This document shows positions 2,026 through 15,436 of a stretch of DNA of 15,436 nt, piece by piece. The first letter of the stretch is position 1, and every line of letters starts with the position of its first letter. Source of the stretch: Armatimonadia bacterium (lineage in GTDB: Bacteria > Armatimonadota > Zipacnadia > Zipacnadales > UBA11051); the NCBI GenBank assembly GCA_039683575.1, contig JBDKRC010000112.1, positions 1-15,436 of the forward strand, written 5' to 3'. A model generated the notes under the pieces. That model saw only the letters and a list, made by a program, of their open reading frames with translations, made no database searches and was not told the origin of the DNA. The translations under genes and the position numbers were made by a program.

Positions 2026-3165
2026 CTACTTCTCTGCTACTCGCAGCCACGCCTTGCCGTCCTTGACCTGCAGCGTCGTCCCCAATGGCTTTGAAATCTT
2101 CGTCAACCGGGCCAGAATTCTGTCTCGCCGCGCCGCTTCCGGATAGATCGGTCCCATTCGCGACCGCGGGATCCAGACTGGCTTGGCAAAGATCTGCCAG
2201 CCCCACCCCTGCACCCATTCCAGATGGAAGATAGCGCTCTCCATCCGTTCGCCCTCACGCTGATCGAAGACGAAGTTCCCCATGGAGTACAGTATCGGCT
2301 TGCCCTGATATACCTCAACGCCTTGGAGCGTATGTGGGTGGTGCCCCAGTACCAAGTCCGCCCCGGCGCGTACAGCAGCATGGGCCGTATTGCGTTGTCG
2401 CTGGTTCGGCAGTGACTGATACTCATCGCCCCAGTGGAACGAGACACACAGTATGTCGCACAGCGGCCTTGCCGCCTGTATCTGCGCTATCAGGTTCGCC
2501 CGGTCGGGGTCCACCTTATTGTACGACCCGTGGCCAAAACTGAGATCCGTCGCCGCTATGAACCCGACGGTAACCGGCCCCCGCCCCACTTTGAGATAGG
2601 TGGCCTCTCCCCCCTTAGTCCTGTCACGTCGCGCCCCGCAATACGGGATGCCCTGCTTGTCCAGTACCTCCAGCGTCTGTAGAACACCCTCCCGCCCGGC
2701 ATTCAGGGAGTGGTTGTTGGCCAGTGAGAGGATGTCAAACCCACCATCCTTCACCACCGCCACCGTCTCCGGGCGCGCCCTGAACACGCAATCCTTGGGC
2801 GCATGCGGGCCGCTCGTGGACAGCGGGCACTCAAGGTTGGCAAAGCTGACATCCGCTGACCGCGTCAGCTCGCGCACCTTCTCGAGTATGCTAAGCGACC
2901 CATTGCGCCGGATCGCGTCGCCTACATTGCGGTCTGTCATCATGTCGCCGACCGCAATCATGGTGAACTGCTTCTTGTCTGACTGCGCTTGTGGTGTGGG
3001 CTCGGCCGCCGCCGCCACCGTAAGCCCTGTCGGCGAGGCCGCCGGCCTCACCAGGGCACCCAGCGCTCCCGCCAGGACCACTACGGCCACAAACACCACC
3101 AAGACTGGCAACAATCGCCTCATGGGTCTGTTAGACCCCTGGTCCTGCGGGAGGTTCCTGTTCAT
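2026..3165 (-). CDS. CapA / poly-gamma-glutamate synthesis family metallophosphoesterase, membrane anchored
   Basis: Motifs VGDMM, ANLECP, SLANNHSLN, SFHWGDEY, GADLVLGHHPH and YSMGNFVFDQ, plus an N-terminal hydrophobic helix. Start placed at ATG 3165 (GGGAG upstream; 3123 is an alternative) because the ORF-track start at 3222 lies inside the -10 box. Confidence 0.9.
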   Translation of the reverse strand: MNRNLPQDQGSNRPMRRLLPVLVVFVAVVVLAGALGALVRPAASPTGLTVAAAAEPTPQAQSDKKQFTMIAVGDMMTDRNVGDAIRRNGSLSILEKVRELTRSADVSFANLECPLSTSGPHAPKDCVFRARPETVAVVKDGGFDILSLANNHSLNAGREGVLQTLEVLDKQGIPYCGARRDRTKGGEATYLKVGRGPVTVGFIAATDLSFGHGSYNKVDPDRANLIAQIQAARPLCDILCVSFHWGDEYQSLPNQRQRNTAHAAVRAGADLVLGHHPHTLQGVEVYQGKPILYSMGNFVFDQREGERMESAIFHLEWVQGWGWQIFAKPVWIPRSRMGPIYPEAARRDRILARLTKISKPLGTTLQVKDGKAWLRVAEK

Positions 3166-3217
3166 CCTGTCACACACTCCCTGGTGGAAGATGGTGGGAA
3201 AACGCAGCCTCAGCAGC

Positions 3218-3247
3218 ATCATAGGTCACGCAACAAGCCAGTGTCAA
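3218..3247 (-). promoter_or_regulatory. sigma70-type promoter for the capA-PPIase pair
   Basis: Minus strand TTGACA (3247-3242), 18 nt, TATGAT (3223-3218). Confidence 0.7.
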
Positions 3248-12325: not shown

Positions 12326-13711
12326 ATGACCAGACACCTTCGCCTAATCATCATTGCGGCTCTCTTGCCGCTGCCGCTTCTCGCCCAGACCCGTTGCGAC
12401 ACGGTCCTGACGGCTGCACATGTACTAACCATGAACGACAGCCTCCAGGTTTTCTCCCCCGGCGCCGTCGCCATCTCCGGCGACAAGATCCTCGCGGTGG
12501 GCACACCGAAAGATGTTCTCTCCATATACGCAGGTCGGCAAGTCCGCGATTTCGGCCAAACAATTCTCATGCCCGGCCTCATCAACACCCATTGCCACCT
12601 CCCCATGGTCCTCCTGCGCGGCATGGCCGACGACATGGAACTGATGGATTGGCTCAACAGCTACATCTTCCCCCTCGAAGCCAAACTCGTAAACGCCCAG
12701 TTCTGCTATGACGCCACCCTCGTCGCCTGTGCCGAGCTAATCCGCCGCGGCGTGACAGGCGTCGCGGACATGTACTACTTCGAGGATAACGTCGCCCGCG
12801 CGGTCAAAGAGTCCGGCATGCGTGGCTGGCTCGGCGAAACCCTCATCGACTTTCCCTCCCCCGACTCCAAAACGCCCGCCGAATGCCTCGCCTACACCGA
12901 GAAATGCGTCCAGAAATGGTCCAACGACCCGCTGGTGAAGGTTGTGCCAGCCCCGCACTCCACCTACACCGTATCCCCGGACAACCTCCGAGCCTGCAAG
13001 GCTCTCGCCGACAAATACAACACCCTCCTCATCACCCACCTCTCTGAATCCGCCACCGAAGTCGAGACCGTGCGCCAGAAATCCGGCCAGACGCCCACCG
13101 AACTCGCCGCCAGTGTCGGCCTGCTCGGCCCCACAACCATCGCCGCCCACTGTGTCGTAATGACACCCCACGATATGGAACTGCTCAAGGCCTCCGGCGC
13201 TGCCGTTGCCCACAACCCCGACAGCAACCTCAAGCTCAACTGCGGCTTCGCCCGCATCACCAGCATGCGCGAACAGGGCCTCCGGGTGGGCCTCGGGACC
13301 GACGGCCCCGTCAGCAACAACCGCCTCGACCTCTTCGACGCCATGGATCTCGTCGCCAAAGAGCAGAAACTGTGCGAGAATGATCCCACCGCCATGAAAG
13401 CCGCCGAAGTCGTCCGCATGGCCACCCTCGGCGGCGCCGAAGCCCTCGGAGCCGCCGACCGCCTCGGCTCTCTCGAGCCCGGCAAACAGGCCGACCTCAT
13501 CGTCGTGGACCTCCAGGGCGCCAACTACGGCCCCGTCTACGATCCTTACTCTCATCTCGTCTACACCACCCACGGCGAAATGGTCACCTCAACCATGGTC
13601 GCCGGCAAGTGGCTGATGCTCAACAACAAGCTCCTCACCCTCAGCGAAAAGCGCCTGCGGCAGATCGTCAGCCATTACCAACCTCTCGCCAAAGCCGCCG
13701 TCTCCCGGTAG
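12326..13711 (+). CDS. Amidohydrolase, MtaD/TrzA-AtzA (MTA/SAH deaminase-like) family, with N-terminal signal peptide
   Basis: PGLINTHCH (HxH), APHSTYT, THLSES, AAHCV, AHNPDSNLKL, GTDGPVSNNRLD and GSLEPGKQAD; GAGGAG SD 8 nt after the previous stop region. Confidence 0.88.
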   Translation: MTRHLRLIIIAALLPLPLLAQTRCDTVLTAAHVLTMNDSLQVFSPGAVAISGDKILAVGTPKDVLSIYAGRQVRDFGQTILMPGLINTHCHLPMVLLRGMADDMELMDWLNSYIFPLEAKLVNAQFCYDATLVACAELIRRGVTGVADMYYFEDNVARAVKESGMRGWLGETLIDFPSPDSKTPAECLAYTEKCVQKWSNDPLVKVVPAPHSTYTVSPDNLRACKALADKYNTLLITHLSESATEVETVRQKSGQTPTELAASVGLLGPTTIAAHCVVMTPHDMELLKASGAAVAHNPDSNLKLNCGFARITSMREQGLRVGLGTDGPVSNNRLDLFDAMDLVAKEQKLCENDPTAMKAAEVVRMATLGGAEALGAADRLGSLEPGKQADLIVVDLQGANYGPVYDPYSHLVYTTHGEMVTSTMVAGKWLMLNNKLLTLSEKRLRQIVSHYQPLAKAAVSR

Positions 13712-13733
13712 GAGCGCTCCCCTGAGCGCGACC
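13708..13733 (+). repeat. Single GTAG-REP-like hairpin overlapping the amidohydrolase stop codon
   Basis: GTAGGA-GCGCTC-CCCT-GAGCGC-GACC; the TAG of GTAG is the stop codon at 13709-13711. Confidence 0.6.
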
Positions 13734-13779: not shown

Positions 13780-15087
13780 ATGAAACCCGTCCGCCCCCAG
13801 CACTTCTACATCACCGACTGGGCCGCCGCCGACCCTCGCTGCGTCGCCCGCATGGAAACCATGATGCAGGGCTTCGGCGTCCCCGTCAGCCACGTCCAGC
13901 TCCTGCGCGAAGATGACATCGAAGCCACCGTCCGCGCCAATGACTGGTTCCAGTTAGACGTCCGCCAGGGCGCCTCTGTCTTCCAGGGCGATCCCGACGT
14001 GGTCTTCAACAAGCTTCGCTGGCCCTCGGACGAGGAGCGCGCCAAGATCGAGCAGCGGCACTCGATGCTGCGCGAAAACCCCGGCGGCTTCTACACCCAC
14101 GGCTTCCTCCGCATGCTCTACGGCATCCACCAGGGCTACCACTTCGAGGACGGCACCCACAAGCGCAACAACGGCGCTACCTGCTGGTCGCTCTACGACC
14201 TCCACTCCGCCTACGGCTGCTTCCACAAATGCCGCTACTGCCGCCGTGGCCGCGTCACCACCCTCGCCCTCAACATCGAAGACTACCTCACCCATACCGA
14301 CCAGCTTATGGACGAAAACCCCTGGCAGACGGTCTTCCGCTACGATGTTGAGACCGACTGCCTCATTCTCGAACCCGAGTACGGCATGTGCCGCGCCCTC
14401 GTCGAGCACTACGCCGCCCTCCCGGACAAGTACCTGATTCTCTTCTCCAAGAGCGACAACGTGGACTTCCTGCTCGATCTCGAACACCGCGGCCACACCA
14501 TCATGCTCTGGACCCTGAGCACCCCCACCGTCAGCCGTCGCATCGAGGTAGATACGGCCACCACCGAACAGCGTCTCGAAGCCGCCCGCAAGTGCCAGCA
14601 GGCCGGCTACACCGTCCGCTTCAAGTTCAAGCCCATCGTCCCCATCGCCAACTGGCGCGAGGACGCCACCGACATGCTCGAAAAGCTCTTCAACGCCGTC
14701 GAGCCCGATAACCTCAGCATGGAAATGCTCTTCTTCGACAATGTCACCGAGTTCAAGGAGATCTTCGACCCGGAACTCTTCGACCCCGAACTGATACAAA
14801 TGATGGAGGACCTCGAAGCCTCCGGACAGATCACCGACCGCATGCACCCCTTCCCGATCGACCTCCGCGCCGAGGTCTACGAATACTACATCCGCGAGAT
14901 ACAGCGCCTCTCGCCCAACACCCGCGTCTCGCTCTGCGCCGAGACCAGGCCCATGTGGGAGCGTCTCGGCCCCCGCCTCGGCGCCACCGCCGAATCCTTC
15001 GCCTGCAACTGCGGCCCAGTGGCCATCCCCGGCGTCAGGCCCGATCAGATCAGCACAACGGAAGACGGCAAAGCCGCTATCAGATAA
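13780..15087 (+). CDS. Radical SAM protein, spore photoproduct lyase (SplB)-like, divergent
   Basis: CxxxCxxC motif GCFHKCRYC; SKSDNVDFLLDLEHRGHT, QRLEAARKCQQAGYTV and KPIV..WRE resemble SplB-family segments; GAGG SD upstream. Confidence 0.82.
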   Translation: MKPVRPQHFYITDWAAADPRCVARMETMMQGFGVPVSHVQLLREDDIEATVRANDWFQLDVRQGASVFQGDPDVVFNKLRWPSDEERAKIEQRHSMLRENPGGFYTHGFLRMLYGIHQGYHFEDGTHKRNNGATCWSLYDLHSAYGCFHKCRYCRRGRVTTLALNIEDYLTHTDQLMDENPWQTVFRYDVETDCLILEPEYGMCRALVEHYAALPDKYLILFSKSDNVDFLLDLEHRGHTIMLWTLSTPTVSRRIEVDTATTEQRLEAARKCQQAGYTVRFKFKPIVPIANWREDATDMLEKLFNAVEPDNLSMEMLFFDNVTEFKEIFDPELFDPELIQMMEDLEASGQITDRMHPFPIDLRAEVYEYYIREIQRLSPNTRVSLCAETRPMWERLGPRLGATAESFACNCGPVAIPGVRPDQISTTEDGKAAIR

Positions 15088-15102
15088 CCCGGACCGGTAG
15101 GA

Positions 15103-15436
15103 TAACATAGAACGGTCTGCTCCCCACTCAAGGCGAATAAGGTGTTAGCGATTCGTCCTTGAAAGGAGCAGACCGAAAATGAAACATGTTGGATTGGATG
15201 TACATCAGGCCAAGACGACGGTGGTTTTTGTGGACGACCAGACGGGGGAAGTCTCCCGCGCCCGCTCGGTGGCCAACGCCGAGTTGCCCGAGTATTTGCT
15301 TGGTTTGGAGGATGACCTCCGCGTGGTGATGGAAAGCTGTTTGCATAGTAAGTTTCTCGCCCGGCAGTTGCTTTCCTGCGGCCTTGAAGTGTGGGTTTTG
15401 GATGCTCGCAAAGTCGCCGCCCAGATGCCCGCTTTC
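15103..15436 (+). mobile_element. IS110-family (IS1111-like) insertion sequence, left end, truncated by window edge
   Basis: Short non-coding left end with inverted repeat CGGTCTGCTCC (15113-15123) / GGAGCAGACCG (15165-15175) just before a DEDD transposase, and an abrupt shift from C-rich to G/T-rich sequence. The left boundary is approximate (about 15103-15105). Confidence 0.8.
15179..15436 (+). CDS. IS110-family transposase/recombinase, N-terminal RuvC-like DEDD domain (3' truncated)
   Basis: Hand translation: MKHVGLDVHQAKTTVVFVDDQTGEVSRARSVANAELPEYLLGLEDDLRVVMESCLHSKFLARQLLSCGLEVWVLDARKVAAQMPAF. GLDVH and VVMES carry the first D and the E of DEDD. AAGGAG SD upstream. Absent from the ORF track because it has no stop in the window. 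Confidence 0.9.
   Translation, partial: MKHVGLDVHQAKTTVVFVDDQTGEVSRARSVANAELPEYLLGLEDDLRVVMESCLHSKFLARQLLSCGLEVWVLDARKVAAQMPAF

Follow-up and report, generated by a model that had tools for sequence, protein, structure and literature searches.

An uncatalogued IS1111-group element splitting a GTAG-headed REP of an Armatimonadia bacterium, with a predicted guide RNA

In a contig of an Armatimonadia bacterium, the same nine-base sequence occurs twice, 1.4 kb apart, first at the start of an intact hairpin and then shortly before a recombinase gene that runs off the contig end. Does this arrangement record the insertion of a mobile element into a host repeat, and what would direct the element to this site? 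The window, i.e., the whole stretch of 15,436 nucleotides that was analysed, is the entire contig C112 of a 6.23 Mb assembly (352 contigs, 63.5% G+C); the element is therefore cut short by the assembly. The features of the window described below are on the forward strand. The 9-mer CCGGTAGGA was found at positions 13705–13713 and 15094–15102, i.e., two matches compared to 0.06 expected by shuffling (0 of 200 shuffles reached two). The upstream copy heads the hairpin GTAGGAGCGCTCCCCTGAGCGCGACC (13708–13733), which has a 6-bp stem closed by a 4-nt loop, folds as DNA with −8.2 kcal/mol (z −2.2), and is the sole intact REP of this type within the window. An earlier sequence-only reading of this DNA had noted the repetition, the hairpin start, and the position of both copies at gene 3' ends, and all three observations were confirmed. 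An amidohydrolase ORF (12326–13711) has its stop codon, TAG (13709–13711), in the REP head, so that the REP provides the end of the reading frame. The downstream copy starts 7 nt past the TAA (15085–15087) of an SPL-like radical-SAM ORF (13780–15087).

The GTAG-headed repeat is a true REP family. The 12-mer GTAGGAGCGCTC is present in 100 element-free copies across both genome strands, 72 of them with the full hairpin pattern; 66 of the 100 are preceded by G and thus correspond to GGTAGGAGCGCTC. In the window, this 13-bp stretch, GGTAGG|AGCGCTC, occupies 13707–13719. A genome search with the 26-mer REP (≤4 mismatches) yielded 89 matches, including six tandem-array repeats (C155, C299) and two right junctions of the element, and revealed two sub-types with loops CCCT/CCCC and ACCA. 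Contig C218 (28219–28325) contains a 51-bp array of three REPs; units one and two are intact, and the third holds the element. Tandem arrays with an 18-nt unit built from the 3' part of the REP (GCGCGACCGCTCCCCTGA) were also observed on C299 (18620 to the end) and at the start of C155, both running into contig ends. None of the seven Y1 (IS200/RAYT-type, PF01797) genes of the genome (C168, C51, C331, C237, C102, C31, and C338) had this REP within 1.5 kb (≤2 mismatches).

Downstream of the second 9-mer and a 76-nt leader, positions 15179–15436 encode the first 86 codons of a DEDD transposase/recombinase. D7 and E52 are present; the contig stops short of D92, D95, and the C-terminal domain. The 86 codons matched the first half of DEDD_Tnp_IS110 with E 2e-4 and 21.6 bits, below the cut-off of 29 bits because the protein is truncated. 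A full-length relative, P0002 (346 aa, 97% identity over 86 aa), scored 66.5 bits with PF01548 and 82.9 bits with PF02371. A search aimed at longer proteins recovered 22 relatives, of which 20 were aligned (alignment A1); D7, E52, D92, D95, and the motif GLTP....SG were kept in all 20. The hallmarks of the IS110 family, an N-terminal RuvC-like DEDD domain (PF01548) together with a C-terminal PF02371 domain and the S/T-G motif, were thus found by way of P0002 and alignment A1, and the window itself contributes D7 and E52. The 86-aa query gave no close relative in 60 related genomes (best E 2.8e-6). Among 185,579 species genomes, the best 80 loci of 163 relatives had ≤36% identity, and plasmid-borne relatives had ≤33% identity among the matches listed (25 of at least 5,000 records). 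IS4321/IS5075 aligned with 29% identity (E 4e-20) over residues 49–339, i.e., 84% of the protein length. Alignment with IS621 and ISCro4 from the PDB (8wt6 is IS621) was limited to residues 190–287, with E 1.7e-11 for IS621. Two other IS110-family transposase genes of the genome, on C253 (~11.8–12.6 kb) and C71 (1269–1685), proved not to be related to the element (tblastn).

The element's ends and its layout follow the IS1111 group. Perfect 9-bp subterminal inverted repeats are formed by ATAGAACGG (15107–15115) and its partner CCGTTCTAT on contigs C32, C65, and C110, where it lies 3 nt from the right end. This length is inside the 7–17 bp given for IS1111 repeats by Durrant et al. (2024, PMC11208160) and below the 11–13 bp that are usual according to Siddiquee et al. 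(2024, PMC11187229). The terminal extensions, with the core counted on the left, are GGATAAC (7) and AGC (3) and equal the published IS1111 lengths of 7 (or 6) bp on the left and 3 bp on the right (Siddiquee et al., 2024, PMC11187229). The same report describes a long non-coding region downstream of tnp and transposases of 330–350 aa; relatives of the element have 282–322 nt of non-coding sequence downstream vs. 76 nt upstream and a protein of 346 aa. By these features, the element is an uncatalogued IS110-family member of the IS1111 group. The assignment to an IS110/IS1111-type recombinase, first proposed from the window only, is borne out by both Pfam domains of P0002, the repeats, the 7/3 extensions, the protein length of 346 aa, and the order of the guides described below.

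The left end of the element was found at four contig ends: C112, C218 (100% identity over 107 nt), C207 (99.1% over 341 nt), and C24 (97.4% over 117 nt). In C112, it comprises positions 15102–15436, the first 335 of ~1,400 bases, up to the contig end. GTAGG precedes all four assembled left ends. Contigs C32, C65, and C110 start with a common sequence of 92–104 nt ending with CCGTTCTATAGC-GG, followed at all three right ends by AGCGCTCCCCTGAGCGCGA(C/T). The sequence farther out from the junctions differs among the copies. Since the four left ends follow GTAGG and the three right ends precede AGCGCTCCCCTGAGCGCGA, insertion splits GTAGG|AGCGCTC in one orientation. The sequence-only reading had predicted a REP half in the right flank and implied that further copies share the site; the former was seen on C32, C65, and C110, and the latter at all four left ends, including the occupied unit of the C218 array. 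Comparison of the junctions identifies CCGGTAGG (15094–15101) as the left half of the interrupted REP. The hairpin at 13708, which had been taken for an empty target, carries GGTAGG|AGCGCTC in the joined state and is such an empty site.

The right flank of the copy in C112 was also sought by synteny, using orthologues of the radical-SAM gene in two same-genus genomes (80% and 79% identity), but neither a REP nor a match to the flanks of C32, C65, or C110 was present there. In genome G002, the gene downstream of the radical-SAM orthologue maps inside contig C333. The interior of the element is missing from the assembly; the smallest contigs are ~1.5 kb, and an interior repeat contig would be below that size. 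For annotation of the genome, the element accounts for at least seven contig breaks, and 66 intact potential landing sites are marked.

Six metagenome elements were recovered with both ends. Their protein identity to the element was 78% (L089), 79% (L090), 71% (L091), and 46% (L092–L094). All six start with (GG)ATAA(C/T)ATA.GAACGG and end with CCGTTCTA(T/G)AGC(GG), and their lengths are 1,402–1,510 nt. The ends are alike, and the target flanks are of five different kinds: GTGGG|AGGGGCTTCCAGCCCC in L089 and L090, TGTAGG|AGCGCTCTCCAGAGCGCGA in L091, GTATGG|TGTCCCCGG in L092, CGTAGG|GGCGGCATGG in L093, and GCGGG|GTGTCCGCC in L094. These flanks define the core. In the genome studied, GG(A) is all that both junctions have in common; in the right flanks of the relatives, the base after GG varies (GG followed by T or G), so that GG (15100–15101) is the core shared by target and element, and the element itself starts with A. 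The sequence-only reading had let the element begin immediately after CCGGTAGGA. The adjoining position of the 9-mer was correct and the boundary was not, because its GGA tail consists of the shared GG core and the first element base at 15102. Under the IS1111 convention with a 7-base left extension, the element would be numbered from 15100.

The identity of the left ends, 97.4–100% over 107–341 nt, argues against the possibility that the copy in the window is a truncated or dead remnant, i.e., a lone left end or an interrupted gene. Such a remnant would agree with the 335 assembled bases, with the lack of an assigned right partner contig, and with the count of four left vs. three right ends; it would also fit the transposase-free orphan module of guide and right end in genome G023 and the disrupted transposase frame of L092. 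However, a contig of 1,423 nt from a public DNA run (X1), which is approximately full length, was found, and P0002 represents a complete frame of 346 aa. Short-read assembly breaks contigs at repeats, and breaks at the copies of this element are expected. We consider a remnant unlikely, and an intact element of ~1.4 kb that may be active at present is the preferred reading.

The six relatives also suggest how the target is chosen. In their 3' non-coding region, a first segment of 9–10 nt reads as the reverse complement of the right flank of the same element, counted from the core. The longest antisense match to the own right flank was 9, 9, 9, 8, 9, and 7 nt, vs. 4–8 nt to the flanks of the other elements. 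In the alignment, the matches all fall at one place, flanked by conserved GAC(U/C)C(U/G)CC and CUG(A/G), and in five of six relatives the segment tracks the flank at this one fixed position over 8–9 nt and through four unrelated sequences. A second segment, just 5' of AAUGAG, equals the own left flank up to the core over 6, 7, 5, 6, 6, and 4 nt (by eye). When the whole non-coding region was searched, own left-flank matches (5–7 nt) did not separate from foreign ones (4–7 nt); discrimination of the left flanks comes from the by-eye reading at the fixed position. L094 had the poorest fit (7 nt and 4 nt), and a segment for its left donor end was not evident. Farther 3', the relatives carry candidate donor segments: AUGU(U/C)(C/A)UCC, which with one mismatch is antisense to the left end GGATAACAT, and AUAGCGG(A/G), which has the sequence of the right end. 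As all ends are alike, covariation has no bearing on these putative donor guides.

The guide segments are enclosed by a closing stem, GGGCGGACUCUC/GAGAGCCGCCC, with 10 pairs, 5 of which show compensatory changes in the six relatives, and are separated from each other by a covarying 3-bp helix (GAA/UUC, GGA/UCC, or GGC/GCC, by eye). Folding of the whole region of L091 was no better than that of shuffled sequences (z −0.2), and RNAalifold produced spurious pairs inside the palindromic guide. A search of Rfam gave no relevant family, only six chance-level matches far under the gathering scores. A covariance model of the guide region (R1) matched only its six training sequences among 160 loci, had no match in the genome of the window (G000), where the region is unassembled, and, across a further 150 genomes of the phylum, picked up a single orphan module. 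This module, L179 (G023:C27, ~3007–3225), scored 64 bits with R1 and comprises the guide-RNA region and a right end, and its surroundings contain neither a transposase gene nor a left end; G023 is a genome of the same order. A guide RNA in the 3' non-coding region, anticipated by the sequence-only reading, is thus supported by flank-matched segments in the six relatives, arranged in the IS1111 seekRNA order, and the same two guides were found in the X1 contig.

For the guides of the element itself, Logan contigs of four public runs were aligned to L091:1200-1495 at 80% likeness. The X1 contig aligns to L091:1276-1485 with 29 substitutions and 12 gaps. It does not differ from L091 in the first guide (1288–1296, AGAGCGCTC); in the second, a single change, C>A at 1314, gives AGGTAGG. 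Changes at 1349/1350 and 1355/1356 give AUGUUCUCC, after which the contig continues with the exact start of C65. The element's own guides are thus GAGCGCTC, which spans 8 nt of the right flank, and the left-flank guide GGTAGG. They were read in a DNA run that is possibly the source sample and may therefore stem from a different copy or strain. The latter guide matches C112 and C218 over 6 nt, C207 over 7 nt, and C24 over 5 nt. Both guides together specify a site of 13 bp, and the genome retains 66 intact copies of it. For this target, sense and antisense are indistinguishable because GAGCGCTC is palindromic; the non-palindromic flanks of the relatives settle the direction. Two metatranscriptome runs of the same study (X2 and X4) also contain this sequence, in contigs (488 and 442 nt) that cover the guide region and pass through the right end into two different flanks. 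One of these is the flank of C110; the flank in run X2 was not found in the G000 assembly. These contigs may be read-through transcripts or DNA carry-over, and their presence in RNA libraries is not proof of transcription.

We conclude with high confidence that the locus represents an IS1111-group element of ~1.4 kb, present in at least four copies in the genome, which inserts into the host REP, under the guidance of a predicted RNA. In the proposed mechanism, the DEDD recombinase would insert a circular form of the element at GTA-GG^AGCGCTC of the REP, in constant orientation and without target duplication, leaving the GG core as the only sequence present at both junctions. The site would be picked by a predicted seek/bridge RNA encoded in the ~280–320-nt non-coding region behind the transposase gene, whose target guides would lie within an internal loop closed by the conserved 10-bp stem. 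Farther 3', AUGUUCUCC and AUAGCGGA match the element's own left and right ends and would specify the donor.

Before 2024, REP-targeting insertion sequences were proposed to recognise their targets by protein–DNA contacts. Applied to this element, such recognition would mean that the recombinase finds the REP hairpin itself and that the matching non-coding segments are incidental. It would be in keeping with a target that is a structured palindrome, with left matches that are short (4–7 nt) and do not discriminate when the whole region is searched, and with a guide RNA that was predicted here from sequence alone. It does not account for a right-flank segment that follows the flank over 8–9 nt at a fixed position in five of six relatives, nor for L089 and L090, whose proteins are 78–79% identical to that of the element and which use a quite different repeat, GTGGG|AGGGGCTTCC. 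Dependence on seekRNA is, moreover, reported from experiments with ISPa11, ISEc11, and ISKpn4 (Siddiquee et al., 2024, PMC11187229), and we regard recognition by protein contacts only as very improbable. Even less credible, to the point of being dismissed, is the reading of GTAGG and AGCGCTCCCCTGAGCGCGA as a REP-like terminal repeat of the element itself, which would explain why these sequences are common to all copies in the genome but is refuted by the 100 element-free joined copies (one of them 1.4 kb upstream in the window), by outer sequences that vary from copy to copy, and by relatives that share the element ends ATAACATAGAACGG...CCGTTCTATAGC and bear other flanks. The sequence-only reading had likewise placed GTAGGA outside the element, in agreement with the 100 element-free GTAGGAGCGCTC copies and with relatives that have the same ends behind GTGGG, TATGG, CGTAGG, and GCGGG.

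A speculative and improbable extension concerns the state of the target. In this clade, the right guide is in essence a copy of the 3' arm of the REP and must displace this arm to pair with the 5' arm; the REP might then be recognised only when unpaired or extruded, during replication or transcription. If this is true, changes of guides between close relatives with 78–79% identical proteins (GTAGG|AGCGCTC vs. GTGGG|AGGGGCTTCC) would track the REP family of each new host, and metagenomic guide sequences might serve to link such elements to their hosts.

In seven of seven sequences, TTGAC keeps the same spacing to the right end. A circle would set TTGACG exactly 17 nt (hand-counted) before TAACAT (15103–15108), a candidate −10 hexamer, and would thereby form a putative junction promoter; the inserted state gave no promoter-like site. 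Junction promoters are described for ISEc11 and ISPpu10 (PMC11187229; PMC12288879). The 5'-UTR contains a hairpin (15113–15175; −34.9 kcal/mol, z −4.9, reached by 0 of 200 shuffles), which is kept in eight sequences with 16 pairs, 2 of them with compensatory changes. Its 3' arm includes the Shine-Dalgarno sequence AGGAG (15164–15168). According to this folding model, the hairpin buries the Shine-Dalgarno sequence and probably limits translation of transcripts read in from outside the element.

The mechanism and the targeting of REPs by this family are already published (PMC1525189, PMC11208160, PMC11187229, PMC12288879), and the element leaves the known mechanism unchanged. It adds to the RNA-guided IS1111 recombinases an uncatalogued clade with a GG core and a compact guide scaffold, and its natural retargeting across five targets could be raw material for the engineering of bridge recombinases. 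The nearest counterpart described is ISPa11 of P. aeruginosa, which according to Tobes and Pareja (2006, PMC1525189) occupies one fixed position near the 5' edge of the REP, in one orientation and with no direct repeats, and whose seekRNA is encoded downstream of tnp and co-purifies with the transposase (Siddiquee et al., 2024, PMC11187229). In IS1111 seekRNAs, the complement of the top strand is reported to lie 5' of the complement of the bottom strand (Siddiquee et al., 2024, PMC11187229). The element resembles ISPa11, as described in these sources, in the fixed REP position, single orientation, lack of direct repeats, predicted downstream guide, and guide order; it differs in host and in REP sequence, and ISPa11 was studied at the bench, whereas the element is known from sequence.

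IS4321/IS5075 are similar to the element in their subterminal inverted repeats and asymmetric 7/3 extensions as given by Partridge and Hall (2003). They are unlike it in their target, terminal repeats of Tn21-family transposons instead of REPs, and in the protein, with the 29% identity mentioned above. IS621 has a bridge RNA whose left guide is reported to pair with the bottom strand and whose right guide pairs with the top strand; the 2-nt core is part of each guide (Durrant et al., 2024, PMC11208160). On that description, IS621 shares with the element a REP-associated target, the logic of two loops, a core inside the guides, and analogous donor guides; in contrast, its RNA is encoded in the left end and its guide order is reversed. 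The core is CT in IS621 vs. GG in the element, and the subterminal repeats are 2–3 bp vs. 9 bp.

ISPpu9 and ISPpu10 of P. putida are also comparable: all their copies are described as located in REPs at a fixed position, with a small-RNA gene downstream of tnp (PMC12288879; PMC1525189). For ISPpu9, Pares-Guillen (2025, PMC12288879) reports that Ssr9 is not required and that there is no hybrid junction promoter, whereas a junction promoter is predicted for the element, as for ISPpu10. Solo ssr9 RNA modules of ISPpu9 are reported elsewhere in its genome (PMC12288879) and recall the orphan module of G023.
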